NCBI GenBank assembly: GCA_963665525.1
Contig: OY762280.1
Coordinates: 2,241,451-2,305,450 of the forward strand
Length of the DNA: 64,000 nucleotides
Reading direction: 5' to 3'
Source of the DNA: Bacteroidales bacterium
Lineage (GTDB): Bacteria > Bacteroidota > Bacteroidia > Bacteroidales > UBA12077
Both the position numbers and the translations under genes were made by a program. Of the stretch, positions 6,101-64,000 are shown piece by piece; position 1 is the stretch's first letter, and each line of letters opens with the position of its first letter. The notes beneath the pieces were generated by a model. That model was given only the letters and a program-made list of their open reading frames with translations, had not been told where the DNA came from and made no database searches.

Positions 6101-7474
6101 TTATCTTCTAACTGGTTTGTTAGTAACTTTTGCACCAGTTCCATTTTTAACAGATTTCGCACCTGGATCAAGAGTAATAGTTTCAACCCATGGTTCTCCC
6201 ATATATCCACCAACACTCCATCCGTCTTGTACAAAGTCGAATGTAATTACCATTTCTGCATAATCACCGCAAGTATTAACAACACCTGTTCCTACGATAT
6301 TATAATCGTATGGTTCGCCTTCCCAATCAGTAGTAATGTAATACTGATCTGGAATTACAATCTTACCAGTTTCATCCCAAACAAACTCAATGTCTACTGG
6401 ATTACCAGTAGTAATGGTTTCTCCCCAATAATCTTCCATCCATCCAAAACCTAATCCATAAATCTGTAAAGTAGAACCAGAAAGTGATGTTACAGCTTGT
6501 GTAGCATATTCATAGTTATCTTCTCCATACCAAGTACCTTCTAAAGTAGCTGGGTCAGCTGACCATGCATAACCAAAAGCATCATCATCAAATGTATAGG
6601 TAGTTCCACTCTTAGTTAAGTTTGCTAAATAAGTTCTATAAGAAGAACAAGGAGTTTCGTTCGTTGTAATTGCTTCAAACTCTAAGATATCATTATTTAT
6701 AACACCAGGTTGATAAAAATCTAGAGTAGCATCAACAGTAACTATGTCTTGGTAATCACCAGCATCTATTGTTGAATATACATCAACAGCGATTAAATAA
6801 TCACCATCAGGTAAATATGAACCATCATCAGCAGTATCTGTTAATGCATGGAAACTCTCAAACGAACTTCCATCAAAAACTTGCCATATAGATGAGTCAG
6901 CAGCATTTAAAATTAACATTCTTAAGTCAATTACTTCATCTGCATCTAAATCTAATCCTATTGCATCAGCAACATCAGTAGACCATGCCATCTCAATAGA
7001 AAAATCAGCATTTGTAAAATTCTCTATTGTGAAATCTACAGTAACAGGTGTAATACTAGCATTTGTAGTTCTCTCATCACCAATTTGTAATGTTAATGTT
7101 TCTGTGCCTTCAATTAACTCATCGGTAAGCACTTGAATTTGAAGCTGACCTGTTGTTGTATTAGCAGGTATATAAACTCTACTATTTGAATTTACAATAG
7201 AATAGTCAGTTCCAGCAGAAGCATTACCATCTATTTGAGTTACATATAAAGCAATATCAGAAATCTGAGCTTCAGAAAGAGTAACATCAAAAGAATAAAT
7301 TGTTTCTGCAGATTCGTTTAAGGTATATCCACCTCCAGCAATACCACTAACTGTTATGGTTGGGCTTGTTGCTGTTAAATCTGAATAGCCAGTGTAATCA
7401 TCATCGTCGCATGAGTAAACGAAGAATACCATAGCTAACAATGCGATTAAATTATATTTAATTATTTTTTTCAT
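6101..7474 (-). CDS. Surface lipoprotein with Calx-beta-like domain (SusC/D locus 2 accessory)
   Basis: The lipobox is VYSCDDDD. The segment SAGTDYSIVNSNSRVYIPANTTTGQLQIQVLTDELIEGTETLTLQIGD is Calx-beta-like. The protein is 457 aa. Confidence 0.7.
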   Translation of the reverse strand: MKKIIKYNLIALLAMVFFVYSCDDDDYTGYSDLTATSPTITVSGIAGGGYTLNESAETIYSFDVTLSEAQISDIALYVTQIDGNASAGTDYSIVNSNSRVYIPANTTTGQLQIQVLTDELIEGTETLTLQIGDERTTNASITPVTVDFTIENFTNADFSIEMAWSTDVADAIGLDLDADEVIDLRMLILNAADSSIWQVFDGSSFESFHALTDTADDGSYLPDGDYLIAVDVYSTIDAGDYQDIVTVDATLDFYQPGVINNDILEFEAITTNETPCSSYRTYLANLTKSGTTYTFDDDAFGYAWSADPATLEGTWYGEDNYEYATQAVTSLSGSTLQIYGLGFGWMEDYWGETITTGNPVDIEFVWDETGKIVIPDQYYITTDWEGEPYDYNIVGTGVVNTCGDYAEMVITFDFVQDGWSVGGYMGEPWVETITLDPGAKSVKNGTGAKVTNKPVRR

Positions 7475-48729: not shown

Positions 48730-48757
48730 ATATAAAAACCTCTATATTTTTTTCAAG

Positions 48758-48781
48758 CCTATCAGAAATTGATAGGTTTTT
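48758..48781 (+). terminator. Rho-independent terminator after the S9 peptidase gene
   Basis: The stem CCTATCA / TGATAGG is 7 bp with a 5-nt loop, followed by TTTTT. Confidence 0.7.
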
Positions 48782-48843
48782 ATGTTTTAAAATATACATC
48801 ATAATTTAAACAAATCTTCGATTAATTACTTACATTTGCTACC

Positions 48844-49037
48844 TAATTGGTCTCAACATCCATTTTTTTTTAGTGGAATGAGTTAAAAGGGAATGCTGTG
48901 ACTTGTCTTTGTTAGATAGGAATTCGGCAACAGTTCCCGCTGCTGTGATGGCTATTCAATGTTTTAACAATATGTCACTCTTTAATATAGAGGGGAAGGC
49001 GTTAAAACAGGCCTAAGTCAGAAGACCTGCCAATTAA
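48844..49037 (+). promoter_or_regulatory. Cobalamin (AdoCbl-type) riboswitch
   Basis: P1 candidates are AATTGG (48845..48850) / CCAATT (49030..49035). Conserved core elements are AAAAGGGAATGCTGTGA and ACAGTTCCCGCTGCTGTGA. The B12-box-like AGTCAGAAGACCTGCC matches the consensus AGCCAGGAGACCTGCC. It is followed by corrinoid-uptake-type genes. Confidence 0.85.
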
Positions 49038-49155
49038 ACATAGATTTTGTAGCCTGCGGAGAACAGGTAGCTAATCAATACGATGCTTCATTGGCCATCC
49101 TTCATATCGTATGCTGCAAAATCAAGTTATGAACTCAATTAAAATTGCAGTAACG

Positions 49156-49734
49156 ATGAAAAAAACAAAAATTCATTTACGTTTTGGAGTACTTTCACTT
49201 TTGGTTTTAATGGCTGCTTTTAGCCGATTAATACAACATCCTCCTAACTTCGCACCTATTGGAGCTATGGCTTTATTTGGAGCAGCATATCTATCTCAAA
49301 AGCATTTTGCTTTAATTATTCCGATAGTCTCCATGTGGCTTAGCGACTTAGCTCTTAATAATATTGTGTATGCGCAATATTTCGATCACTTTGTTTGGTT
49401 TTATCAGGGGTGCTACTGGACCTATGGAGCATTTATTGTAATTGGCTTTATCGGATTTGGATTACTTAGAAAAATCAAAATTACTAATATCCTGTTAGCT
49501 TCTTGCCTGGCTTCAGTTAGCTTTTTCATCTTATCTAATTTTGGTGTTTGGGCATCTGGAACAATGTACCCAAAATCACTTTCAGGACTTATAATGTGCT
49601 ATACTGCCGGCTTACCATTTTTAAAAAATACATTTATGGGTGATCTGGTATATTCCGGGATCTTATTTGGGATATTTGAAATAGCAAAGTACCATTTCCC
49701 TGTATTACAATTACAAAAACAGAATATAAAGTAA
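49156..49734 (+). CDS. Small polytopic membrane protein, candidate inner-membrane corrinoid transporter (DUF6580-like, from memory)
   Basis: The track ORF begins at 49111; MKKTKIHLRF at 49156 is more plausible. It has about 5-6 TM segments and the motif HPPNFAPIGAMALFGAAY. It is the first gene after the riboswitch. Confidence 0.7.
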   Translation: MKKTKIHLRFGVLSLLVLMAAFSRLIQHPPNFAPIGAMALFGAAYLSQKHFALIIPIVSMWLSDLALNNIVYAQYFDHFVWFYQGCYWTYGAFIVIGFIGFGLLRKIKITNILLASCLASVSFFILSNFGVWASGTMYPKSLSGLIMCYTAGLPFLKNTFMGDLVYSGILFGIFEIAKYHFPVLQLQKQNIK

Positions 49735-49813: not shown

Positions 49814-52800
49814 ATGAAACAAATTTACTCATTTTTATTAGTCTTTGTAGGACTAATTTTATTAGGGTTTAATTCTTACTGTCAGGAATTTACCCACAAA
49901 GAAGATTTAAACGTAGAACGGATACGCAGTTCTTCTGATTACAGAAAAACTGTAAAATTTGCCGATCTGTTTAATTTCCCGTCAGAAATTGATGTTAAAA
50001 GTGAAATTTCAACGAATACCGATATCGCAATCAATTTATCATCTACAAACGAATCAAATATTCTATTTGACGGATATTATTATTCTAGTTACAGTGGACA
50101 GTTTTTTTATTACAAAATTCCAGCAAATAGTTATGGTAAAGATACTCTAACAGTTACAATAACATATAATGGAATTGAAGCCATTTCTAAAGTTATAGCA
50201 GAAATTGATCCTATTAAATGTAAAGATGATGCATATGATATGGGTATAGGAGACACTCTGGAAGTTACTGTTACAAGTAATGATAATCCGAAAACCTTTT
50301 TTGATTATGCAAGTTTTGAGATTATTCAAAATGCAATATCAGGGACACATCAAATCAAAGGTGATGGAACAATAGAATATATCAACTCGGAAAGTACTCC
50401 AAATTATACCAGAGATACAATTATTTATCGTATTGCCGATACAAAATCTAACTACGATACAGCAATGGTAGTATTGAGCATCCATGAAGATTCATATGTT
50501 ACTAAGGTTTTTGATTACCTACCTGCTCCGGGTCAGTTTGTGAACACCTCCTGGGCAGATACGGCAGCAGGAGATAAAGTAATCGGCAATACCAGCGGTG
50601 GAGCTTCTCTCGGTGGTTTTGGTGGATATATTATTGTTGGTTTCGACCAACCAATTGTCAATTGTGCTGAAAATGCTTATGGAGTTGACTTTACAGTTGT
50701 TGGTAATGCTTTTTCCGGATGGGGAGAACCAGCCGCTGTAAAAGTTATGAAAGATGAAAACGGGAACGGGTTACCCGATGATGAATGGTACGAATTAGCA
50801 GGTTCTGAATACCATTTCTCATCTGCCATTAAAAATCTAACCATGACTTATTATAATCCTAAGTACAATGAAAGACATACAATTCCTTATTCTACTGACA
50901 AAGGATTCAATGGTGCCATGGGAACAAATGGATTTCATGCACAACAGTATTATCCTGATCCTGCAAGTTTTTGTATAAGTGCTGATTCAGTAAGTTATGA
51001 CGGTACTTTCTCTAAATTCCTTTTAGATAAAAGTAACCCAGGTTATATCACAGCTAAAAGACTTCCATTATTTGGATATGCCGATTCACGCCCTAGCAAT
51101 AGTACACCTACAAAACCACTTAATCCTTATGTAAATGATGAAAATGGTAAAGCTGCCGACGGATTCGATTTAGAATGGGCTATTAAGGCCGATGGTAGTC
51201 CTGCTAACATTGATACCGTGCATTTTGTAAAAGTTTACACTACTGTTCAGGAAGATGGTGGTTGGTTGGGAGAAATTTCTCCTGAAATTTTTAAAGTTGC
51301 AATTACAACTCCAGATCCTTCTTATGTACCACAAGATTATGAAGCTCATGCCATTGGCGCTTCTCAAATTCAGGTATTAAAAGGAGAAACATTACAATTG
51401 GAAGGTATATTATTTAAAAATGGTATCCCACAAAGCGGAAGTCAAACCTGGACATCAGATAGTAAACATGTAGCAACTATAGATAATACTGGTTTATTAA
51501 CAGCAATTGAAAACGGAAAAACAACTATCCACTTTAGTGTTAAAAGTGATGTTACTCCTGACTCTATTGATATTAATGTAGTTGAGCTTACAGAAGTTGT
51601 TATTGAACTTGAAGGTAACTCTTCGGTTTCTAACGATACCATTTTTGTTATAGAAGGAGAAACAGAATATATTCACGCTGAAGCAATTGACAACAGACCA
51701 TCTCCTGCAAATCGATTTGTTTACGAAAGTTTTAACTGGTCATCATCAGATAACTCTGTTGGAACTATTGACCAAGGAATATTTAATGCTAAAGCAGTTG
51801 GTACAACTATGGTTATTGCTGAATCAGTTCATAACCCTCTACTAAAAGATACAATTATTACGGTTGTTACAAAGGCTCCTGAGATTGTTGCTGTAAAAGA
51901 TACCGTTTTATTGCCTTACTATAGCAGATCAGGATCTTTCACAAACGATGAGCTATTTTCTACAGGAGTGAATGCTATCGTAACTATTAAGTCAAAAGCG
52001 AGCAGTTTTTCAATTATGAATTCGAATATCGTAAACAACACTTTTGAGTATGATGTTCTGGAAAATAAATATGGTTTTGAAACCATTGAATTTACCGTTG
52101 AAGCATTTGGGGTAGAATCAACTATAGAAATTGTTTTTCAGGCTGTTGAGCCTGATAACTTTGAGACTCCAAAGCAAGTTCTGTTTACAAATGGCGGTGA
52201 GTTTATGAATCCTAATGCTCCTACCGAACTAATGACATATATTCCTGATCAGGATACCACAATTCAGATTGATAATTACCTTGCAGGAGCTACATCTGTT
52301 CAGGATATGATTATTGATGGTAACTTTGCATATGTATCAGCAGATTACTATATCACCAGATATAATGTTTCTTCAAGAACTGCTACTGATTCAATATACA
52401 CTCAGGATTTAGATCCTAATAGTGCAGATGGTCAGGGAACTGAAATGGCAGGAGTAAATCACAAATTAGCTATTTACCAAAATATGTTACTGGCAACACG
52501 CCAAAACAGTGCTCAAGCACCAGAAGATGGATATAATGTAAGAATTTACAATAAAGGTGATTTATCCTTTATTAAGAAAATTCCTGTATCTAATCAGGCT
52601 ACCGACATTGTAATTGTTAATGACACGGCTTATGTTATGATCAACGGTGGTTTTGCCGGTCAAACAAGCTCTATGGCAATTATCGACTTAAAAACATTAA
52701 CCCTCAATAGAGAAGTTGATCTTGGTACTGCCGGACTTGGTGTAATGCAAATGATTGCTAAAGACAACAAAATCTATTGTGTCAGACTTGCTGATTTTAT

Positions 52801-54928
52801 GGGTCGTTTTAACTCTGGAATTGTTATATATGACATAACATCTGGTGCTATTCAGGAAGTTGAATATACATCAGGAATCCCTTACGATTCATCGCCACTG
52901 GCAATTGAGCCATGTACAAACGACACTATTTTCATTAAAAAAGATCTTGGTTATGTTGCATTTAACACACAAGACCAAAGTTTTGGAAGTGAAACACATA
53001 TGAATATTCCATCATATTATAACCAGGATAGCGATCATATTGGCCGAAGTTCTGCTTATGATCCTGATGAAAAGAAATACTATATAACTTATGCATACTG
53101 GCATGGTAAAGGTGTAGGTCAGGTTTATGATAGTAATCTTGATAGTATTGGTACATTTAAAGGTGTTGGTGCATCTCCTGAAGTTATGAAAATATGTCAA
53201 GCATCTGTAATAAATGAGAAACCATATACTTGCTCTGCTAATTCACCAAAAACATACAATGAAGGTGAAGACTTTAAATTTAGATTATCTTACTCTACTT
53301 TTAAAGATAAAGAGGATAATTACCCAAGCATGTACTTGTATAATCCTGCTCAGTACGAATGGCTATGTTTTGATTCAAAAACCCGCTACATTTCAGGAAA
53401 TTTTAACGCAGAATTAGAAGAATCAAAAACTTTTAATGTTATAATGCAAGGAATAGACAAGCAAGGTGCGTTTGTTCTCGATACAGTTAAAATAACAATC
53501 AATCCTGTAGATGATCCTATGACATTAGAAAAATTAATTTCTGATATCACAGTGGATGAAGATGCTGCTGACTCACTGCTTACATTAACTGAAACATTTG
53601 TTGACGTTGATAATATAATCAGTACAAGAATAATAGCTAATACAAATTCAACTCTGATAAATACAACAATCAGCGAAAATGTATTAACTATCCATTTCAA
53701 CGTAGAACAAAATGGTGAAGCTGAAATCATTATAGAAGCTGAATCAAATGATGTAACTTTAACTGATACATTTAATGTTTATGTAAGGCCAGTAGATGAT
53801 GCTCCTTATGTTGTAAATTCAATAGCTGATGTTACAGCAAACGAAGATGAAAGCATTGCTGCCATTGACTTAACTAATGTATTTGATGATATAGATAACG
53901 ACAATTCAGCCATTACTAAAGAGATTATTAGTGTAACTGATGAAAGTTTACTAACCATGAACATTACAAATAATCTTCTAAACATTGAGTTAAAAGAGAA
54001 TCAATCAGGTGAACTGGAAGTTATTATCGAAGCTACATCAAATACATTAACAGTAACTGATACGTTTAATATTACTGTTAATGCGGTTGATAATGCACCG
54101 GTTGTTGTTCATTCAATAACTGATATCACAGCAAACGAAGATGAAAATATTACTGATATTGATTTAACAAATGTATTTGACGATATTGACAACGATAATA
54201 CTGCCATAATAAAAGTTGTTAAAAACATTTCGAATACAAGCCTGTTAAATGCCGAAATCAATGATAATAATTTATCAATCGCACTACTTGAAAATCAATT
54301 TGGAGAATCTGAAATTGTTATTGAAGCAACTTCAAATGGTTTATCGGTAACAGATACATTTAATATTGCAGTGAACGCTGTAAACGATAAACCGGTTGTT
54401 GTTGAAACAATCGAAAATGTAACTGTAGATATGAATGCTGCAGATTTACAAATCGATTTAAGTAATATATTCGATGATATCGATAGCGATGATCTTGAAA
54501 TTACAATTAGCAATAATACAAATGAAAGCTTAGTAGAAACTTCAATCTCAGAAAATATACTAAGCTTATCATTTGTTCAGGATCAACACGGAACAGCAGA
54601 ATTAACTGTTACTGCAAACGATGGAACAGCATCTGTAAATACATCATTTAACGTTACAGTAAACAATACTGCAACCGGATTAGAAAATATTGAGAATATT
54701 ACGCTCAAAATTTATCCTAATCCTGTTCAGGAGATTATAAACATAGATTGTGAATTTGGTATGGAACGCGTTGTTATATTTAACAGCATTGGAAATATCC
54801 AAAGAATAATCAATCCTGAAAATATCAATTATTGTAAAATAAATGTTTCTGGTTTACCATACGGTACTTATTTCTTAAGTATTGAAGGTAAGAACAACCG
54901 AATTACTAAAACAATTATTAAACAATAA
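49814..54928 (+). CDS. Giant T9SS-sorted surface protein.
   Basis: The protein is 1704 aa with a signal peptide. Domains in order are a cadherin/Ig-like N-region, a shared unassigned domain, BIG2-like domains, a BtuG-like beta-propeller region, four cadherin-like repeats and a T9SS CTD. YLPAPGQFVN...WYELAGSEY is homologous to the next gene. BIG2-like VATIDNTGLLTAIENGKTTIHFSV is present. VLFTNGGEFMNPNAPTELMTY parallels [19 protein letters not shown] of the 59484 gene. The C-terminus LKIYPNPVQEIINID...GTYFLSIEGKN...IIKQ is a type-A T9SS sorting domain. Confidence 0.85.
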   Translation: MKQIYSFLLVFVGLILLGFNSYCQEFTHKEDLNVERIRSSSDYRKTVKFADLFNFPSEIDVKSEISTNTDIAINLSSTNESNILFDGYYYSSYSGQFFYYKIPANSYGKDTLTVTITYNGIEAISKVIAEIDPIKCKDDAYDMGIGDTLEVTVTSNDNPKTFFDYASFEIIQNAISGTHQIKGDGTIEYINSESTPNYTRDTIIYRIADTKSNYDTAMVVLSIHEDSYVTKVFDYLPAPGQFVNTSWADTAAGDKVIGNTSGGASLGGFGGYIIVGFDQPIVNCAENAYGVDFTVVGNAFSGWGEPAAVKVMKDENGNGLPDDEWYELAGSEYHFSSAIKNLTMTYYNPKYNERHTIPYSTDKGFNGAMGTNGFHAQQYYPDPASFCISADSVSYDGTFSKFLLDKSNPGYITAKRLPLFGYADSRPSNSTPTKPLNPYVNDENGKAADGFDLEWAIKADGSPANIDTVHFVKVYTTVQEDGGWLGEISPEIFKVAITTPDPSYVPQDYEAHAIGASQIQVLKGETLQLEGILFKNGIPQSGSQTWTSDSKHVATIDNTGLLTAIENGKTTIHFSVKSDVTPDSIDINVVELTEVVIELEGNSSVSNDTIFVIEGETEYIHAEAIDNRPSPANRFVYESFNWSSSDNSVGTIDQGIFNAKAVGTTMVIAESVHNPLLKDTIITVVTKAPEIVAVKDTVLLPYYSRSGSFTNDELFSTGVNAIVTIKSKASSFSIMNSNIVNNTFEYDVLENKYGFETIEFTVEAFGVESTIEIVFQAVEPDNFETPKQVLFTNGGEFMNPNAPTELMTYIPDQDTTIQIDNYLAGATSVQDMIIDGNFAYVSADYYITRYNVSSRTATDSIYTQDLDPNSADGQGTEMAGVNHKLAIYQNMLLATRQNSAQAPEDGYNVRIYNKGDLSFIKKIPVSNQATDIVIVNDTAYVMINGGFAGQTSSMAIIDLKTLTLNREVDLGTAGLGVMQMIAKDNKIYCVRLADFMGRFNSGIVIYDITSGAIQEVEYTSGIPYDSSPLAIEPCTNDTIFIKKDLGYVAFNTQDQSFGSETHMNIPSYYNQDSDHIGRSSAYDPDEKKYYITYAYWHGKGVGQVYDSNLDSIGTFKGVGASPEVMKICQASVINEKPYTCSANSPKTYNEGEDFKFRLSYSTFKDKEDNYPSMYLYNPAQYEWLCFDSKTRYISGNFNAELEESKTFNVIMQGIDKQGAFVLDTVKITINPVDDPMTLEKLISDITVDEDAADSLLTLTETFVDVDNIISTRIIANTNSTLINTTISENVLTIHFNVEQNGEAEIIIEAESNDVTLTDTFNVYVRPVDDAPYVVNSIADVTANEDESIAAIDLTNVFDDIDNDNSAITKEIISVTDESLLTMNITNNLLNIELKENQSGELEVIIEATSNTLTVTDTFNITVNAVDNAPVVVHSITDITANEDENITDIDLTNVFDDIDNDNTAIIKVVKNISNTSLLNAEINDNNLSIALLENQFGESEIVIEATSNGLSVTDTFNIAVNAVNDKPVVVETIENVTVDMNAADLQIDLSNIFDDIDSDDLEITISNNTNESLVETSISENILSLSFVQDQHGTAELTVTANDGTASVNTSFNVTVNNTATGLENIENITLKIYPNPVQEIINIDCEFGMERVVIFNSIGNIQRIINPENINYCKINVSGLPYGTYFLSIEGKNNRITKTIIKQ
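53504..54666 (+). repeat. Four in-frame tandem repeats (285/294/294/~290 bp) encoding cadherin-like ~98-aa modules
   Basis: Repeat starts are at 53504, 53789, 54083 and 54377. The modules share VDDAP.VV..I.D.TANEDE....IDLTNVFDDIDND...I...............N.L.I.L.ENQ.GE.E..IEATSN.L.VTDTFNI.VN. Confidence 0.85.
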
Positions 54929-54941
54929 TACCTAATTTCTT

Positions 54942-54966
54942 TACCGGGATCAGATTGATCCCGGTA
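54942..54966 (+). terminator. Strong intergenic hairpin between the two T9SS cargo genes (terminator/attenuator or RNA-stability element)
   Basis: A perfect 10-bp stem TACCGGGATC / GATCCCGGTA has a 5-nt loop, followed by ATTTTC. It lies 14 nt after the stop codon. Confidence 0.5.
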
Positions 54967-54990
54967 ATTTTCATTTAAAATCTTCACGGA

Positions 54991-57426
54991 ATGCGATCTT
55001 TTATAACCATTATTCTGATCTTACTTCTAAAGCCATTATCAGGTCAGGAAATACTTAACAAACAAAAAACAAAAGATGGAATTTTTGTTTCCCGGATTAT
55101 TGAATATAATCCGGCACCCGGCCAGTTTATCAATACTTCTGCCTGGGGAACACCTGACAAAGCAGAATCAATTATTGGTGGAGTAAGCGGAGGAATTAGC
55201 CTTGGTGCTTATGGAGGATATATTATTGTTGGATTTAATAAATCGATAGAAAATGATCCTGAAAATCCTTACGGAATTGATTTTACTGTCTTTGGAAATC
55301 CTCTGGAAGAATGGTCCGAACCAGGAATTATTATGGTTATGAAAGATGAAAACCAGAATGGCATTGCCGACGACACCTGGTACGAAATTATTGGTAGCGA
55401 TCATTACTGGGAATCTACCGTACACAACTACTCTCTTATCTACACTAATCCTAATAGCGATGTTGCCGCTGATGTAGAATGGATCGATAACAAAAATGAC
55501 TCAGGTTATGTTTATGCCAACGAATTTCACTTGCAGCCTTATTATCCTTCTGCCGATTTATTCCCTGATATTAACCAGGAAAGCTATGGTTTTTCAGGAA
55601 CTCGTATCAAAGGATTTGTAGACAATACCATCCCTACTTACATAATGTCTTTTCGTCGCGGATTTGGTTATGCCGATAACTTCCCCAGGGGAACAGCTCC
55701 CTACGATGTACCAAACAATCCTTATACTCCCGAAAAAGAAGGATGTGGAGGCGATCCTATCGACATTGACTGGGCAGTAGATTCGGAAGGTAACCCTGCG
55801 AATCTGGATCAAATCGACTTTGTAAAAATTTATACTGCCATAAACGAAGAAGCGGGCTGGCTAGGCGAAGTGTCAACCGAAGTTACTGCTGTTATGGATG
55901 TTACTCCCAACCCTTCAATAACAGGCGAAGAAAACCTGTTTGTGGTTAACGATCTTCCCCCACAAATTAGCGCCGGAACCACAATTAAACTTGAAGCTAA
56001 CTTTTTTATAAAAGGAAAAATACAAGACACCGAAAATATTGAATGGACTGTTGATAAGCCTCTAAAAGCAAACATTGATGAAAATAACTATTTAACAGTT
56101 ATTGATACAGGTACTATTATCGTTACTGCAAAATATAATCATGGAACAACTTACATAAAAACCATAACTACCGACATTATTGCTCCTGATAAAATAATAT
56201 TAGATATTGATCAAAATGAATTAAGAGTTGGCGATACACTTAGCATTGAATCAAAAGTAATGGATCAAAACGGAAATTATTTTTATGGCTTAGAAAATAT
56301 CTGGAGTAGTTCCAACGACAATATAAGTATCGAACAAAACAACAATAATTACTACATCCAAGGCAAAAAAGAAGGAACATCAAAATTATATGTTCATCCT
56401 AAAGGTTTTGAAAATATTAAAGATTCTGTCGAAATCACCATATTAAAAGCACCTGATAAAATCCAGGTTTACTTAAGCATTAAATCAGATAAAGCAACAA
56501 TATATCCAAGAACTAAGATTGAAATTACCAACTTTAATTTAAACCCATTTATTACTGATCCAATCCTGGATTATGGATTACAAGACATACCAACTATTAC
56601 ACTTGCTCATGTTGTAGCTTCCGTATTTGAAAATATTGAATTTGAAAGCGATTTACGTTTTACTGATAAGCCTGAAGGAAACTTATACATCGCACAGCTT
56701 CCTGTCAAATCTGATAATAACATTTTATACTATTACGGTTCGGGAGGATATGATCATAATGCCTGGATTATAAAACACAATAACAATAGCTATTTAAATA
56801 GCTTTGCAGATATACAGGTATCTGAAAACGATGAAATAGTAGTTTATTATATTGAAAATATTCATTCTCCGTGGTGTATTTATCATGCTAATTTTATAGA
56901 AACAACCACCGAAACAGGAAAAATACTTGATATAAGCGCTTCGTGTAATTCATACCAATATGAAAATTCGGTAATCATAAGTAATGGAATTACTCCAGCA
57001 GTATCCGTTCCCGTTTTTGTAAATGATGAAAAATATTCTGAAAATGGAAATATCATATTAACTGACAATAATGGGAATGTACATCTTCATTTCAAATATA
57101 CCGGTGATTATATTGTACGAATTGCTACCGAAAATTATCATTTAATCGTAGAAAATGGACTTACTGGTATTGAAGACATAAATACCTCCGTTGAAGTATG
57201 GCCAAACCCGGCAAACAAGTACATCTCAATTAATACCAATAATTCTGCTACTGAATCAATAGATATTTTAATATACTCCATCACGGGGGTTTTAAAATAT
57301 CAACATCGTTTTCAAATATTTACTAAAACAACGATCAATACGGATAAGTGGAATAACGGGATTTACTTTATTCAAATAAAAATCTCTGATAAAATAATTA
57401 GCAAAAAGATCATCATAAATCATTAA
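54991..57426 (+). CDS. T9SS-sorted surface protein: shared unassigned domain, BIG2-like domains, T9SS CTD
   Basis: The protein is 811 aa with a signal peptide. YNPAPGQFINTS...GGYIIVGF...YGIDFTVFGN...MKDENQNGIADDTWYEIIGSDHY is paralogous to the 1704-aa protein. The C-terminus VEVWPNPANKYISIN...GIYFIQIKISDKIISKKIIINH is a T9SS CTD. Confidence 0.85.
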   Translation: MRSFITIILILLLKPLSGQEILNKQKTKDGIFVSRIIEYNPAPGQFINTSAWGTPDKAESIIGGVSGGISLGAYGGYIIVGFNKSIENDPENPYGIDFTVFGNPLEEWSEPGIIMVMKDENQNGIADDTWYEIIGSDHYWESTVHNYSLIYTNPNSDVAADVEWIDNKNDSGYVYANEFHLQPYYPSADLFPDINQESYGFSGTRIKGFVDNTIPTYIMSFRRGFGYADNFPRGTAPYDVPNNPYTPEKEGCGGDPIDIDWAVDSEGNPANLDQIDFVKIYTAINEEAGWLGEVSTEVTAVMDVTPNPSITGEENLFVVNDLPPQISAGTTIKLEANFFIKGKIQDTENIEWTVDKPLKANIDENNYLTVIDTGTIIVTAKYNHGTTYIKTITTDIIAPDKIILDIDQNELRVGDTLSIESKVMDQNGNYFYGLENIWSSSNDNISIEQNNNNYYIQGKKEGTSKLYVHPKGFENIKDSVEITILKAPDKIQVYLSIKSDKATIYPRTKIEITNFNLNPFITDPILDYGLQDIPTITLAHVVASVFENIEFESDLRFTDKPEGNLYIAQLPVKSDNNILYYYGSGGYDHNAWIIKHNNNSYLNSFADIQVSENDEIVVYYIENIHSPWCIYHANFIETTTETGKILDISASCNSYQYENSVIISNGITPAVSVPVFVNDEKYSENGNIILTDNNGNVHLHFKYTGDYIVRIATENYHLIVENGLTGIEDINTSVEVWPNPANKYISINTNNSATESIDILIYSITGVLKYQHRFQIFTKTTINTDKWNNGIYFIQIKISDKIISKKIIINH

Positions 57427-57434
57427 AGGATAAA

Positions 57435-59453
57435 ATGAGACGACTACTTTTCATATCAACTTATATTTTAAGCAGCACCATATTACTTGATGCACAATCA
57501 GTAACAGATACTATTGCGATTGAAGAAGTAAGGATTGTTGCCAACCGGATATTCATAAAAGAAGAAGCAGGGCAAAAAATTTCGGATGTAGATTCTGTTG
57601 TCTTGTTAGATAAACTAAACCAGAATCTTTCGGATGTATTATCCGAGAATACCTCTGTTTACATTAAAGAACATGGACGCGGAGCATTAGCAACAGCATC
57701 GTTTAGAGGAACTGCTGCCACACATACACAGGTTTTATGGAATGGAATGAACATTAATTCCCCTATGTTAGGGATGGTAGACTTTTCGCTTATTCCTGTG
57801 TATGTTATTGATGATTTAAGTTTAAATCATGGAGGAAGTTCTATTAAAGAACAAAGTGGAGGTTTAGGAGGAAGCATAAATATTAGCAATAATGTCGATT
57901 GGAATAATCGTTTTAGTGGCCGCTATTACCAAGGCATTGGAAGTTACTCAACGTTCGATGAGTTTGGCCAGGTTAACATTGGAAATAAAAAAATACAATC
58001 CAAAACTCGTATCTATTCTAACGCATCAAAAAACGATTACTCTTTTATCAACAAATCTATTACCGAGCGTCCTGAAGTTAAAAATGAGAATGCCGATTAT
58101 TCCAAATATGGATTTGCACAGGAAATCTATCTTAGAGCACACAAATACGATTACATTTCTCTTAAAACATGGGGACAACTTGCTCAACGGTCACTTCCAA
58201 CAGTTCAGAGTTACGAAGGTGCTGATCAGGCTAATTTAAACTCACAAGACGATAATACATTTAAGGCTGTTGCCGCTTGGAAACATTATGGCAGCAAGAG
58301 TAAAATCTATTTTACTTCTGGGTACGACTACCAATCCCTTGATTATATACTTGAAAATGAAGTTAACAGCATTGGCAAAGTTCCTGCAATTTATTCCGAA
58401 AGCATTATGCAAAGCATTCATAGCAATGCAAAATATGATTACAACTTTACTGAGAATTTTCAATTTAATTCATCGCTTAATTATAAGCATTACAATGTTA
58501 ACACCAAAGATTCGGTATTAAAAACCGGGTATAATGTTATACGAGATGACTTTTCGGTATTCGGAGGATTCTACTTAAACCTTTTTAAGAAATATAATAT
58601 CTCCTTAATGCTTCGAGATGATATTGTTGATTATAATTTATCCCCTTTAATATTTAATTTGGGTATTAGCTATAAGCCTTTTTCAAATACCGATTTAGTA
58701 ATTAAAGGGAGCCTTGCAAGAAATTACCACCATCCTACGCTAAACGACTTATACTGGCAACCTGGAGGTAATCCTGAACTAAAAGCAGAAGAAGGATTTA
58801 CCGAAGATATTACCATTATTTATTCTTTTGATAATGGCAGAACTCATGTAAGTAGCGAAGTAACAGGTTTTTACTCCGATATTAACAACTGGATTATTTG
58901 GTTGCCAAGTTTTAAAGGATACTGGGAACCATTTAATATTAAAAGAGTGAAATCTTATGGTTTGGAATATAACTTTAAAGTAACTAGCCATATTCAAAAA
59001 TTAAATATCCAATTACAAGGAAACTACGGCCTTACAAAATCATTAAATTATGGCGATCCCTTAACCTGGGGCGACGAATCATATAAAAAGCAACTACCAT
59101 TTATTCCTGTGCATTCCGGAAACTTTTTAACGCAACTAAAATACCAGGGATATTATATACGATATCAATTTAATTCTTATAGCGAAAGATTTACCATGAC
59201 CAGTAATAAAGTAGGGCTCGAAGATGATTCTGGTGATTTAGGAGTAAGTCAAGATGCTGGAAAATTAGGCTGGTACTATCCCTATTATATGAGTAACCTG
59301 ACTATAGGAAAAGAACACGACATTAAAAAATATACCCTGGGAGTAGAACTAAAAATTAACAACCTGTTCGACGAAGAGTATCGTTCGATATTAAACCGAT
59401 ATATGCCAGGCAGATATTATACCTTATTACTAAAAATCTCTTTCAAAAAATAA
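57435..59453 (+). CDS. TonB-dependent outer-membrane receptor, BtuB-like
   Basis: The protein is 672 aa with a signal peptide and a TonB-box-like DTIAIEEVRIV. The plug has SFRGTAATHTQVLWNGMNINSP and a 22-strand-sized barrel follows. It lies in a riboswitch-headed cluster 8 bp after the preceding gene. Substrate is inferred from context. Confidence 0.8.
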   Translation: MRRLLFISTYILSSTILLDAQSVTDTIAIEEVRIVANRIFIKEEAGQKISDVDSVVLLDKLNQNLSDVLSENTSVYIKEHGRGALATASFRGTAATHTQVLWNGMNINSPMLGMVDFSLIPVYVIDDLSLNHGGSSIKEQSGGLGGSINISNNVDWNNRFSGRYYQGIGSYSTFDEFGQVNIGNKKIQSKTRIYSNASKNDYSFINKSITERPEVKNENADYSKYGFAQEIYLRAHKYDYISLKTWGQLAQRSLPTVQSYEGADQANLNSQDDNTFKAVAAWKHYGSKSKIYFTSGYDYQSLDYILENEVNSIGKVPAIYSESIMQSIHSNAKYDYNFTENFQFNSSLNYKHYNVNTKDSVLKTGYNVIRDDFSVFGGFYLNLFKKYNISLMLRDDIVDYNLSPLIFNLGISYKPFSNTDLVIKGSLARNYHHPTLNDLYWQPGGNPELKAEEGFTEDITIIYSFDNGRTHVSSEVTGFYSDINNWIIWLPSFKGYWEPFNIKRVKSYGLEYNFKVTSHIQKLNIQLQGNYGLTKSLNYGDPLTWGDESYKKQLPFIPVHSGNFLTQLKYQGYYIRYQFNSYSERFTMTSNKVGLEDDSGDLGVSQDAGKLGWYYPYYMSNLTIGKEHDIKKYTLGVELKINNLFDEEYRSILNRYMPGRYYTLLLKISFKK

Positions 59454-59483: not shown

Positions 59484-60611
59484 ATGAAAAAATATCTTTT
59501 CATATTCATTATAAGCACACTAATTTATTCATGTATGGAAGATGATGAACTTACCGAGTTTAATAAGCTTGAAGTAAAACAAGATTCATCGCTTACCGAT
59601 TATATCAGAAATCAACGGGGTGTTTTTATTACCAACGAAGGCAATTTCATGTACGATAATGCTTCTCTCTCCTATTACATGATTGATTCGATGAAAAACC
59701 TGAATAATGTATTTTTCAGAACAAATGCTGTACCATTGGGAGATGTTGCCCAATCTATGACTATTAGGGACTCTTTAGGTTATATAGTGGTCAATAATTC
59801 CGGGAAAGTATATGTAATTAATATTCACACATTTGATTATGTGGGTAAAATTACCGGATTAACCTCTCCCCGATATATTCATTTTATCAACGATCAGAAA
59901 GCATATGTCACTGATCTTTATGCAAAATCAATTGCTATCGTAAATCCGCAAACATTTCAAATTACTGGTTCTATAGACGTTAATAATCATTCCACTGAAT
60001 TTTACCAACACCCTACCGAGCAAATGGTACAATACGATAAATATGTATTTACCAATTGTTGGTCGTATGATAATCAAATTTTGGTTATCGACACAGAAAC
60101 AGACCAAGTAGTTGATTCCATTAAAGTACTTAAACAACCCACTTCGCTGGTTCTTGATAAATACAATAAAATATGGACAGTAACCGACGGTGGTTATTAT
60201 GGCAGTCCTTATGGACACGAAGCTCCCGGACTAATCTGTATTGATGCAGTAACACGTAAAGTAGAGAAAATTTTCAGATTTGAATTGGGCGATTGGCCAT
60301 CTGAAGTATGCTTAAATGGTACTAAGGATACACTTTATTTTATTAACCGTCATATATTCCGATTACCGGTTACTGCTTCCATATTTCCCAATGATCCTTT
60401 TATTGAAAGTCATTATGAAGGAAACTATTCCGGTGGATATTATGGATTAACTGTTGATCCGGTAAGTTCCGAGATTTATGTAGCTGATGCCATAGATTAT
60501 GTCCAACAAGGTGTAACATTCCGTTACTCACCTCAAGGTGAACCGATAGATACCTTTAAGGTAGGTATTATTCCTGGTGCATTTTGCTTTAAACCAAGCA
60601 ATAAAAAATAA
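59484..60611 (+). CDS. Surface lipoprotein, BtuG-like / YncE-like beta-propeller
   Basis: The protein is 375 aa with lipobox LIYSCMEDD. The motif [19 protein letters not shown] and repeated blade-like segments ([17 protein letters not shown]..., IWTVTDGG..., IYVADAIDY) are present. It sits directly after the BtuB-like receptor, as btuG does in Bacteroides. Confidence 0.7.
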
Positions 60612-60653: not shown

Positions 60654-63600
60654 ATGAAAAAACCAATTACACTCATTTTATTGAGCTTATTCTCGTTGTG
60701 GCTATATGCCGAGAACGAAAAAAATCCATCGAAAGCAGTTTCTGCTTTTCCATGGGTAGAAAGCTTTGAAGAAGCCACCTTCCCTCCTGAAGGCTGGACA
60801 ACAGAAACAGAAGATGCCAGCGGTGATGGCTGGGAACAAAACAATGGATCAACATACGGTCCAGGTAATGTTCCTGATGGCACATATGCTGCAATGGCTG
60901 ATGTTTACAATATTTCCAAAGATCTAACAGCTAAACTTAAAACACCTGTGTTGCAATTAGGAAGTTTATCAAGTCCTAAACTTAAGCTTTTATGGCAGTG
61001 TACCGATGGTTATAGTCAAGATCCTGTTTTTGTAATTAAAATGTCAACAGATAATGGAGTCAGTTATAATGAAATATATAATCAGACTGCTGATGGATTT
61101 GCCAATGACTGGGTTGAAATTGACATAGAACTAACAGGAGCCACTGATGAAACAATACTTTCTTTTGAAGTTATTAGCGATTATGGCAGTAAAAATTTAT
61201 TTATTGACAATGTAAAAGTTTATGAGCCAGCTCCTATGCAGTTTGTTTCTGCAGAATCATTTCAAAATAATTCAAATGTTATTTCCATAGGTAGCACGAA
61301 CAATGATATTGTTGGTATTAATGTTAAAACTCAAGGTGCTTTAAATAAACTATCCATAAGTGATTTTAACTTTAGTTTTGATGGTACAACAGATTTAAAC
61401 GATATTACCAGGGCTCAACTATTCTATACTGGAAGCTCGAATTCCTTTTCTACATCAACAGCTTTAGTAGAAACAAGCACCATTCAAAATACCATTACCT
61501 TAAATGGGAACACCGAACTGGCAGAAGGGAACAATTATTTTTGGCTGGCGCTAGACATTAGCCCCAGTGCATTATTAGATAATGTAGTCGATGCCAGCTA
61601 TTCGCAAATTACGATTGGAACAGATAATCATGCAGTTTCTGCTCCAAACCCTGATGCAAACAGGCAGCTTAAGAAAATACTGAACATGCCCTCAGGAACA
61701 AATACGGTTACCGTTAACGAAAATCTTGTTTTTTACGATGATGGTGGTGAACTGGAAAAATATTCTGAAGGATTTGAAGGTACTATTACATTTGTTCCTA
61801 ACACCAGTGGCAAAGCCATTAAAATTGAATGGGATAATTTCGAGATCTTTAATACTTCAAGTACTGGTAACAATGATATTTTTAAAATTTACCAGGGATC
61901 AACCACTGATGAAGCCCATTTAATTGACACTTATTCAGAAATGCCTCCTAGTATTTATTCTATGGATGCCAACGGTACAATCACGATTTATTTTAAAGTA
62001 AACACAGGAGTTCCAAAAGAAGGATGGCAGGCTCTGGTTTCTGAATTTACTCCGTCTAACATGAGTTATGTTGAATCAAATATATTACAGGAAGTCACTA
62101 ATGTTGTTTCTGCCTCTGAAACTGATGCTCAAATGCTAAAAATCGAGATAGAAACTGTAAATACACTTAATCCTTTATCTACAGGAGATTTTGTCTTCAA
62201 CACATCCGGTTCTTCCGATGCAGGGGATATTGCTAAAGCTAAATTATATTATACAGCCAACAAAGATGTATTTAGTACTGCAAATTTTGCTGGTGAACAA
62301 AACTCACCAAATGGAGAATTTACTATTACCACAAATCAAGAGTTAAAAGTAGGTAAAAATTATTTTTGGTTGGTTTACGATCTAACGGATATGGCAATCC
62401 ATGATAATGTTGTAGATGCTTCATGTACTTCAGTGAATGTTGGAGGAACAAGTCAGGTTCCTACAACAACATCACCTGACGGTAATAGGAACATCGATAA
62501 TACTTATAGGATGCCTACATCGGGTACACCCACAAAAACTATTGCTCAGGAAATTCCTTTTACCGACGACAACGAAGGATATGGAGGTAAATACTCCTAC
62601 GGTGCTAATTCGACCGTTACTTTTGTTCCGGCAAACAGCAACGAAAAAATAAAAGTTGATTTTTCTTCTTTTGATATATACTACTCAAGCTCAAGTTATG
62701 GTACAAAGGCTGTCTTTAAAATATTCAATGGAAATAGTACAGCATCTGCCGATTTATTATGGGAAGCCGATGAAACAAACTGTTCTGAAGGACCAGGTTA
62801 CATTGTTACATCAACCGTTGATAATGGTGCACTTACTATTCAGTTCGTTGGTAACACTTATACATCTACTTATACTAAAGCAGGATGGGAAGCAACATTA
62901 TGGAGTGAATTACCAAAAGACATGGAATTCAAATCAGCAGAAGTTACTCAACAATCAGGTGTTGTAAAACCGGGATCAATCGATCATCAACTACTGTCTA
63001 TTAACCTGAAAACCTCCGGAACATTAAATCCTGTAAATAATACCATATTTACTTTTAACACGAATGGAACAACTCAAGCTATTGATTTAAGTGCAGCCCG
63101 ATTATACTTCACCGGTAAAAACAACGCTTTTTCTACAACCACTCCGGTAGGCACAGAAGTTTCAGCTCCTGAAAATGACTTTAGTTTTACATGTACTAAT
63201 TCTCTTGAAGAAGGTAATAATTACTTCTGGTTGGTTTACGACATCTCATCGGGAGCTACTATAGACAATACCGTTGATGCTGAACTTAATAAAGTTCAAT
63301 TAATGGATTCGGAGCATATTATTAATAATGGCGCACCTGCAGGAAACAGTATCATTAAGAATATTTACAATCTTGAATCTGGGACAAATACGGTATATAT
63401 CAACGAAACACCATTGCAATTTTTCGATGATGGTGGTCAAACCAATAAATACTCCAAAGATTTTAACGGAACGGTATCTTTCATCCCTGAAGATAATACT
63501 CAAAAGGCTCGTTTAAGCATAAGCAGTCTTCAATTCTATAGCATGGACAAAATTTCGGTTTATAATGGTACTGGAACAGAAGATGAGAATTTGATTCGTG

Positions 63601-64000
63601 AAATAGATGGTGATGAGAACATAACAAATTCTGACGAGCCATATGTATTTAAATCTACTGCCGATAATGGCGAGTTAACAGTAGTATTTAAAAGTTACTC
63701 TTGGTCGACACCTAAAGATGGATGGGAAGCTACTGTTCAAAGCTTTATACCACAGCCAATTTTTTATAAAGATGCAGCGGTTGATCAAGCCAATTCCAAG
63801 GCGGTAATTAAAAATGAGAGAAATGCTGAAATTCTTCAGGTAAAACTAAATTTTGGAGGAGAAACAACTCCTGCGAATATTACAAACTTTAAGTTTAATA
63901 CCAGCTTAAGTTCTGCAAATAGCGATATTGCTAATGCAAAACTATATTACTCTGATGAAATTAATACTCTTAATGTTGTAGGTAATGAGCTGATAGGAGA
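60654..64000 (+). CDS. Very large modular secreted protein, N-terminal >1100 aa (runs off right edge)
   Basis: My own translation from ATG 60654 gives MKKPITLILLSLFSLWLYAENE... with no stop to position 64000. That is why it is missing from the ORF track. The N-terminal FPWVESFEEATFPPEGWTTE...FIDNVKVY resembles the cleaved-adhesin/choice-of-anchor-J type. At least 3 repeats of a two-domain unit follow (...G.NYFWLVYD......DN.VDA... then a CUB-like ...F.DDGG....YS..F.GT..F.P........GW.A). Confidence 0.8.
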   Translation, partial: MKKPITLILLSLFSLWLYAENEKNPSKAVSAFPWVESFEEATFPPEGWTTETEDASGDGWEQNNGSTYGPGNVPDGTYAAMADVYNISKDLTAKLKTPVLQLGSLSSPKLKLLWQCTDGYSQDPVFVIKMSTDNGVSYNEIYNQTADGFANDWVEIDIELTGATDETILSFEVISDYGSKNLFIDNVKVYEPAPMQFVSAESFQNNSNVISIGSTNNDIVGINVKTQGALNKLSISDFNFSFDGTTDLNDITRAQLFYTGSSNSFSTSTALVETSTIQNTITLNGNTELAEGNNYFWLALDISPSALLDNVVDASYSQITIGTDNHAVSAPNPDANRQLKKILNMPSGTNTVTVNENLVFYDDGGELEKYSEGFEGTITFVPNTSGKAIKIEWDNFEIFNTSSTGNNDIFKIYQGSTTDEAHLIDTYSEMPPSIYSMDANGTITIYFKVNTGVPKEGWQALVSEFTPSNMSYVESNILQEVTNVVSASETDAQMLKIEIETVNTLNPLSTGDFVFNTSGSSDAGDIAKAKLYYTANKDVFSTANFAGEQNSPNGEFTITTNQELKVGKNYFWLVYDLTDMAIHDNVVDASCTSVNVGGTSQVPTTTSPDGNRNIDNTYRMPTSGTPTKTIAQEIPFTDDNEGYGGKYSYGANSTVTFVPANSNEKIKVDFSSFDIYYSSSSYGTKAVFKIFNGNSTASADLLWEADETNCSEGPGYIVTSTVDNGALTIQFVGNTYTSTYTKAGWEATLWSELPKDMEFKSAEVTQQSGVVKPGSIDHQLLSINLKTSGTLNPVNNTIFTFNTNGTTQAIDLSAARLYFTGKNNAFSTTTPVGTEVSAPENDFSFTCTNSLEEGNNYFWLVYDISSGATIDNTVDAELNKVQLMDSEHIINNGAPAGNSIIKNIYNLESGTNTVYINETPLQFFDDGGQTNKYSKDFNGTVSFIPEDNTQKARLSISSLQFYSMDKISVYNGTGTEDENLIREIDGDENITNSDEPYVFKSTADNGELTVVFKSYSWSTPKDGWEATVQSFIPQPIFYKDAAVDQANSKAVIKNERNAEILQVKLNFGGETTPANITNFKFNTSLSSANSDIANAKLYYSDEINTLNVVGNELIG

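Follow-up and report, generated by a model that had tools for sequence, protein, structure and literature searches.

To our knowledge, every accessory B12 binder of Bacteroidota characterised so far (BtuG, BtuH, BtuJ, and BtuK) is a lipoprotein from gut Bacteroides. Their reach beyond the cell has been attributed to vesicles. BtuG and BtuH themselves, the fusion of a BtuG-type (G) propeller to a BtuH-type (H) domain, and riboswitch control are already known. Both a relay model, in which B12 passes from H to G, and a precedent for the G+H fusion have been published (PMC10404256, PMC13616437), and all three BtuH proteins of Bacteroides thetaiotaomicron carry lipoprotein signals (PMC13616437). 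Here, we analyzed a 64,000-nucleotide stretch of DNA (the window) from a Bacteroidales bacterium (contig OY762280.1) and focused on a giant protein of 1704 amino acids (aa) that ends in a sorting domain of the type IX secretion system (T9SS) and is encoded in a B12-related gene cluster.

Our preferred reading, to which we assign a probability of roughly 0.7, is that the giant protein is a riboswitch-regulated T9SS cargo that collects extracellular corrinoids for the downstream BtuB-BtuG importer. A role in corrinoid capture had been proposed from the DNA sequence in an earlier annotation, hereafter the original prediction, and it is backed by a riboswitch at the head of the operon, by riboswitch linkage in related loci, and by fusions to BtuH-type and DUF4465 domains. 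The protein probably contains two modules of the B12-capture type, a BtuH-type domain with an almost intact site and a divergent BtuG-type propeller. The original prediction placed the corrinoid-binding fold in the propeller. The BtuG-like propeller is indeed there, but judged from sequence the best-supported B12 site of the protein is aa 228-505 instead. What is new here is the predicted T9SS export route, the giant stalked architecture, and an unnamed family of considerable size, made up of T9SS propellers derived from BtuG; our literature search found no paper linking T9SS with BtuG, BtuH, or corrinoid capture.

The open reading frame (ORF) for the giant protein exists as originally claimed at 49814..54928 (+), as seen from the ORF call and translation. 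Its T9SS type A C-terminal sorting domain (CTD) was also predicted correctly and lies at aa 1633-1704 (54710..54928 with the stop codon, +). Pfam PF18962 matches aa 1633-1702 with 40.3 bits and E 3.9e-10 (cut-off 27), and TIGR04183 matches aa 1633-1704 with 32.9 bits (cut-off 23). By this sorting domain, the giant protein is most likely a T9SS cargo whose export is predicted, and the several CTD proteins encoded in the locus imply that the host has a T9SS. We also noted a 114-aa ORF antisense within the giant gene (53386..53730, -), which is most likely a chance ORF.

The BtuH-type domain and the BtuG-derived propeller

The segment at aa 228-505 (50495..51328, +) was originally described as an unassigned domain shared with an 811-aa neighbor. 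The two proteins do have this domain in common (34% identity over 476 aa, E 3e-80). It can be assigned, however: phmmer identifies it as a BtuH-type B12-binding domain. It matches 7BIZ, the structure of BtuH2 with cyanocobalamin, at residues 222-488 of the chain (E 2.3e-39, 43% identity to BtuH2), which belong to the B12-binding domain of BtuH2 (PMC8941943). It also matches 8BLW chain B with E 6.6e-38; the C-terminal part aligned there corresponds to the BtuG1 H-domain (PMC10404256). No Pfam model matches aa 228-505 of the giant protein.

We took 13 site residues of BtuH2, covering the B12 contacts and the Na/Ca site, from the published descriptions (PMC8941943, PMC13616437). The giant protein is identical at 11 of them: Q333, F334, N399, F401, H476, Y510, W577, and the four further Na/Ca-site residues E406, D522, S582, and E584. 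The two differing sites are Y475F and W511I. The 811-aa protein is identical at 10 of the 13, which is the same count as in the H-domain of BtuG1, a domain reported to bind B12 (PMC13616437). Going by this site conservation, it is very likely that the H-domain of the giant protein binds B12.

The second module spans aa ~788-1128 (52175..53197, +); the bounds first given for it, 52180..53100, were roughly right, and the propeller is slightly longer. The motif VLFTNGGEFMNPNAPTELMTY, which had drawn attention to this region, is present at aa 789-809 (nt ~52178). However, its likeness to the local BtuG lipoprotein, offered as evidence at the time, is no better than expected by chance (a 22-aa BLASTP match, E = 1.1), so the sequence resemblance alone gives no support for kinship with BtuG. 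Support comes from structure prediction instead, which returned the BtuG/YncE-like propeller that had been expected. AlphaFold 2 gave a predicted local distance difference test score (pLDDT) of 76.8 and a predicted template modeling score (pTM) of 0.82 for model 1, built from 7 sequences, and 85.3 and 0.87 for model 2, built from 25 sequences. Each model has 28 strands, which form seven predicted four-stranded blades.

When these models were compared with the whole PDB using Foldseek, BtuG structures were the best matches, filling the top nine places for model 1 and the top seven for model 2. They comprise BtuG1, BtuG2/BT1954, BT2095, and B. uniformis 3DSM, with E values of 1.6e-15 to 1.7e-13, TM scores of 0.71-0.82, and root mean square deviations (R.M.S.D.) of 2.7-4.3 Å. 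The next class of matches (YVTN, NirN, Kelch, YncE) begins at ~1e-10, 3-5 orders of magnitude worse in E. Furthermore, hhalign of a 104-member family profile against 10 BtuG sequences gave a probability of 98.4% and E 4.8e-14 over 306 columns. This alignment runs from the first to the last blade, with the motif VLFTNGGEFMNPNAPTELMTY falling in the aligned first strand. A hidden Markov model of the propeller family gives BtuG2 44 bits in a two-sequence test.

Sequence-based searches of the databases were less sensitive to this relationship. Pfam and NCBIfam returned nothing relevant for the isolated propeller segment, and DUF5074 (PF16819) matched neither the whole giant protein nor the isolated propeller, even at E up to 10. 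Searches of PDB sequences with the propeller, either as a single sequence in phmmer or as a 5-sequence profile in hmmsearch, retrieved no BtuG. Because the structure and profile comparisons agree, we regard the propeller as a remote BtuG homologue, which is more than a shared fold, though by these comparisons it lies outside Pfam DUF5074.

We also observed a loop insert in blade 2 (window ~52400-52460, giant aa ~862-883, YTQDLDPNSADGQGTEMAGVNH) that is near-invariant in the close subfamily, with the pattern YTQD...ADGQG...G.N. The insert is missing in BtuG and in most of the ~430-aa members, and its pLDDT is below that of the neighboring residues. The loop may act as a lid or ligand loop specific to this subfamily.

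Riboswitch linkage and the propeller family

At the head of the cluster lies a cobalamin riboswitch aptamer (48831..49048, +), which matches the full-length Rfam model RF00174 with 98.8 bits (gathering score 31.5) and E 1.8e-23. We then considered ten close loci from reference genomes, including metagenome-assembled genomes (MAGs) of Bacteroidales, Prolixibacteraceae, and Cytophagales as well as Parachryseolinea, Dawidia, and Chryseolinea. All ten have a cobalamin riboswitch upstream of the propeller gene on the same strand. Among distant loci, whose propeller members have 25-29% identity, a riboswitch was found in four of the five that could be evaluated. The linkage therefore holds in 14/15 evaluable loci across Bacteroidales, Prolixibacteraceae, and Cytophagales.

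The gene order is conserved as well. Both btuB and btuG lie downstream in 12/16 related loci, including all three distant loci with enough downstream sequence, where BtuB and BtuG are encoded behind the riboswitch. Apart from loci L001 and L010, the close loci with enough downstream sequence follow the order propeller protein, H-domain T9SS protein, BtuB, BtuG. The fusion of H-domain, Big_2, and propeller occurs in six of the ten close loci, and a stand-alone propeller with a CTD in the other four; in L013-L015 the propeller is separate, and the H-domain is found only on the next gene. In L001, where neither btuB nor btuG is close by, a riboswitch still lies ahead of the propeller-CTD gene, and B12 control therefore attaches to the propeller itself.

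An identical copy of the giant protein was not found in the assembly collection, the nearest relative being P0008 of locus L007 at 81-92% identity. L007 also has a second cobalamin riboswitch (6367-6661, -; 67 bits), back to back with that of the operon, and this implies a divergent B12-regulated gene; our window has one riboswitch. Separately, stand-alone H-domain ORFs of ~320 aa sit just after BtuG in Dawidia soli (L005/L015; L005 17517-18272) and in a Chryseolinea MAG (L016 17630-18388), so that these loci have up to three BtuH-type domains each.

A word-indexed homologue search yielded 6 relatives only, and it was an exhaustive profile search that exposed the family, with 300 cluster representatives at E up to 1e-3. 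No Pfam family, DUF5074 included, covers the propeller in ten sampled members. We based a domain census on the 102 representatives with a near-complete propeller. A T9SS sorting domain ends 96 of these, and a lipobox-like motif is present in 2 at most. The commonest form consists of the propeller and CTD only (64/102 members, ≤470 aa). As in the giant protein, a BtuH-type domain is N-terminal to the propeller in 12 cluster representatives. In P0009, the propeller is fused to a DUF4465 domain in place of the BtuH-type domain (E 7e-49). Proteins of the DUF4465 (BtuJ) family bind B12 (PMC13398666), and by its domain content P0009 shows the propeller joined a second time, independently, to a domain known to bind B12. 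P0009 itself is a 1260-aa T9SS protein with Big_2, propeller, and DUF4465 (BtuJ-type) domains (L019 3-3785).

These loci bear on whether the giant protein could be a generic T9SS adhesin of Ig, cadherin-like, and propeller modules whose position in a B12 operon is incidental. Cadherin-like repeats, Big_2 domains, and YVTN/YncE-like propellers are typical of Bacteroidota surface adhesins, and generic propellers do appear lower in the Foldseek list. However, those generic propellers are outranked by the BtuG structures by orders of magnitude in E value, the riboswitch linkage recurs in nearly every evaluable locus, and the B12 site of the BtuH domain in the protein is intact. On the last two grounds we rejected the adhesin explanation, which we consider very improbable.

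Corrinoid contacts of the propeller and alternative roles

We mapped the 16 BtuG2 contact residues (bioRxiv 10.1101/2024.02.16.580637; PMC10404256) onto the propeller using a profile alignment of 14% identity. By this alignment, ~6 of the 16 are kept or conservatively replaced: G56, F58 (F797), Q93 (Q830), W194 (F947), Y335 (W1096), and N107 (D844). F797 corresponds to F58 of BtuG2, which stacks on the 5,6-dimethylbenzimidazole (DMB) base, and D844 is still polar. The retained positions rank among the most conserved columns of the propeller family. Furthermore, the 16 pocket-equivalent columns together beat the average conservation (0.526 vs 0.419, permutation p = 0.009, 104 members). BtuG1 and BtuG2 have only ~60% of their contacts in common and are both picomolar binders (bioRxiv 10.1101/2024.02.16.580637), which makes B12 binding by the propeller plausible from its sequence. 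As only ~6 contacts are kept, corrinoid binding by the propeller itself is something we infer.

Several points weigh against our preferred reading. Ten of the 16 contacts are changed (E55G, S131G, R133N, I148Q, W149N, S195A, Q219A, W272S, Y316R, and I359S), and the propeller structure is a prediction. BtuL and BtuK2 of B. thetaiotaomicron failed to bind cobalamin (PMC12751083), so membership in a Btu operon is no guarantee of binding. The distant member L021 has no riboswitch within its 200-nt upstream gap. Finally, a conserved terminator-like hairpin (54941..54967, +; a 12-bp stem, then a T-run, TTTTCATTTA) lies in the gap between the giant gene and the 811-aa gene. It splits the giant gene from the genes for the H-domain protein, BtuB, and BtuG, and co-regulation of the two halves is therefore not certain. 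The hairpin recurs in L007 (12804-12830) with the stem kept and the loop changed, and the equivalent place in L008 (13449-13474) is occupied by a hairpin whose sequence differs. The element may act as a partial terminator or in transcript processing or stability, and it may set different expression for DUF6580 and the giant gene on one side and for the H-domain protein, BtuB, and BtuG on the other.

The changed contacts are what one would expect if only the BtuH-type domain binds corrinoid, the BtuG-derived propeller having lost binding to become a docking module for BtuB/BtuG or a rigid spacer. Charged or polar contacts (E55, R133, and Q219) and the mobile W272 are among the residues lost, DUF5074 does not recognize the propeller, and BtuL and BtuK2 are precedents for Btu-operon surface proteins without B12 binding. 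The face of BtuG that holds B12 also meets BtuB (PMC10404256), so conservation of the pocket could reflect protein contacts. Even so, the retained F58, Q93, W194, and Y335 positions stack on or bond the corrin and DMB, and BtuG1 and BtuG2 both keep picomolar binding with only ~60% of their contacts in common. H-domain-free propeller-CTD proteins are the commonest form of the family and lie first behind the riboswitch. As they hold this position, and as in L001 such a protein stands alone without btuB or btuG nearby, some function related to B12 must belong to the propeller itself. We therefore consider loss of binding unlikely.

A remodeled but still constrained pocket could also mean that the propeller, while under B12 control, binds something else, for example an incomplete corrinoid, a different cobamide, a lower-ligand base, or some other tetrapyrrole. 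The locus would then have widened its substrate range and not duplicated BtuG. With a canonical BtuG already in the operon, a paralogue of altered specificity would be a natural outcome, and single-residue changes shift the cobinamide affinity of BtuG paralogues 100-fold (bioRxiv 10.1101/2024.02.16.580637). On the other side, the aromatic and glutamine positions that are kept touch features common to all corrinoids, and no direct evidence points to an alternative ligand; we regard this explanation, including the widened substrate range, as rather improbable. If the corrinoid spectrum of the propeller does differ from that of BtuG, the family would help explain the origin of cobamide selectivity.

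Architecture, gene cluster, and comparison with known B12 binders

The remaining modules of the giant protein surround the two described above. The first 227 residues (49814..50494, +) contain a signal peptide, with the hydrophobic N-terminus MKQIYSFLLVFVGLILLGF, and an N-terminal region that is kept in L007-L009 and weakly in L012 by tblastn. The original assignment of this region as Ig-like is tentative, as the Big_9 match (E 9e-4) is below the Pfam cut-off. The BIG2-like domains were predicted correctly: Big_2 Ig-like spacer domains occupy aa 506-775 (51329..52138, +) in two stretches (PF02368, E 1.2e-14) and align with the 811-aa neighbor up to aa ~694. After the propeller comes a He_PIG-like Ig domain at aa 1136-1230 (53219..53503, +; PF05345, E 0.009). 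This domain is clear in the homologues P0001, P0007, P0012, and P0013, where it also follows the propeller, and by tblastn it is conserved in L001 and L007-L009. Four tandem repeats of ~97 aa then fill aa 1231-1616 (53504..54661, +). The self-comparison bears out the predicted number of repeats (95-98 aa each, 38-64% mutual identity), but their likeness to cadherins is weak (Cadherin_4, E 0.009). Their copy number differs between orthologues of the giant protein, and they are probably a stalk.

Upstream of the riboswitch, a terminator-like hairpin (48755-48779) ends the preceding gene. The first gene after the riboswitch (49111..49734, +) encodes a multi-pass, hydrophobic DUF6580 membrane protein of ~200 aa (PF20221, E 2.7e-55). 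It has the same position in L007, L008, and L009 and is absent from the Cytophagales loci. The protein is a candidate inner-membrane corrinoid transporter, a role we infer from its position, as it has no solved relative by sequence and our literature search found no mention of DUF6580. Following the giant gene, the 811-aa T9SS cargo (54991..57426, +; Por_Secre_tail, E 7e-12) contains its BtuH-type domain at aa ~32-305, as determined by alignment to aa 228-694 of the giant protein, and is found in all btuBG-linked relatives. The TonB-dependent receptor that follows (57435..59453, +; plug domain, E 4e-12) is the BtuB of the locus. TIGR01779 (TonB-B12) matches it over its full length, yet below the cut-off, and its orthologues, at 44-89% identity, always precede BtuG. 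The 375-aa lipoprotein at 59484..60611 (+), originally called BtuG-like, proved to be a canonical BtuG surface lipoprotein, with E 5.4e-130 to the BtuG2 structures 8BN0 and 8BMX, a DUF5074 match (E 1e-23, 84 bits), and an N-terminus with a lipobox-like Cys. The peptide originally quoted from this lipoprotein is present in its ORF. Beginning 43 nt after BtuG, a further ORF (60654-64000, +) encodes at least 1115 aa, including a signal peptide, and continues past the end of the window; a CUB-like stretch and three copies of BNR_assoc_N (E 8e-47) were recognized in it.

We propose that low intracellular B12 would cause the riboswitch to permit expression of the operon. The giant protein would then be exported via the T9SS, and either a surface anchor would take the place of its CTD or cleavage of the CTD would set the protein free. 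Outward from this C-terminal anchor or cleavage site, the order would be the stalk of repeats and Ig domain, the G-type propeller, the Big_2 domains, and the H-type domain. The giant protein would bind scarce corrinoids tightly and hand them to BtuG, which would cap BtuB for TonB-dependent import, and DUF6580 may carry the corrinoid over the inner membrane. In a more speculative version, which we consider doubtful, the giant protein and the wider propeller-CTD family would be released by the T9SS as a soluble “corrinophore”, bind corrinoids in the environment, and be recaptured by docking of the propeller on BtuB or BtuG. If true, this would be a secreted-protein analogue of siderophore and hemophore piracy for B12, widespread in environmental Bacteroidota.

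Should the preferred reading of extracellular corrinoid capture be correct, Bacteroidota with T9SS sorting domains build the same B12 relay from T9SS cargo. These would include Bacteroidales and Prolixibacteraceae MAGs and Cytophagales such as Dawidia, Parachryseolinea, and Chryseolinea. It would give a function to an unnamed propeller family of ~300 clusters, usually encoded by the first gene behind a cobalamin riboswitch, and would link the T9SS to vitamin acquisition. The fusions would also provide natural two-site (H and G-like) constructs for studies of hand-off between B12 binders. Furthermore, this reading predicts that long-stalked or secreted protein traps take part in the competition for corrinoids in soils, sediments, and guts.

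Among described proteins, BtuG1 (BtuGH, BT1490 of B. thetaiotaomicron, 8BLW chain B) is a close parallel. It likewise joins a G propeller and a BtuH-type domain on one polypeptide and is likewise encoded in a riboswitch-controlled btuB operon. In Foldseek, the propeller matches the BtuG1 G-domain with E 7e-13 for model 1 and 8PTD with E 4e-15 for model 2. However, BtuG1 is a lipoprotein of ~660 aa, lipidated at its N-terminus, with G then H, and caps BtuB directly (PMC10404256). The giant protein has H then G with Big_2 domains between them, and behind G come ~500 aa of stalk repeats and the T9SS sorting domain. Its propeller has 12-16% identity to BtuG1, and the locus has a separate canonical BtuG to cap BtuB. 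Since the anchor of the giant protein would be C-terminal and the lipid of BtuG1 is N-terminal, the chain order of one mirrors that of the other, and G comes before H outward from the anchor in both.

Like the giant protein, BtuH2 (BT1956, 7BIZ) holds its binding domain off the anchor by Ig-like domains and belongs to a btuB-btuG operon. It differs in being a lipoprotein with N-terminal PKD domains and a C-terminal binding domain (PMC8941943), whereas the binding domain of the giant protein is near the N-terminus and the C-terminal T9SS domain would serve as anchor or export signal. For BtuG2 (BT1954), the propeller model superimposes on 8BMY and 8BN0 with TM scores of 0.73-0.80 and an R.M.S.D. 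of 2.7-2.9 Å. BtuG2/DUF5074 and the propeller have in common a first-strand motif, (I/F)TN(E/G)G.F, and a last-blade motif, and are found in the same operons. Blade 6 of BtuG2 has two strands (PMC10404256), whereas all seven predicted blades of the propeller have four, and the BtuG family has an N-terminal lipid anchor where the propeller family has a T9SS CTD. Finally, BtuJ (DUF4465) is a β-jellyroll lipoprotein that reaches outward on outer-membrane vesicles; the giant protein would instead reach outward on its long T9SS-exported stalk or by being released.

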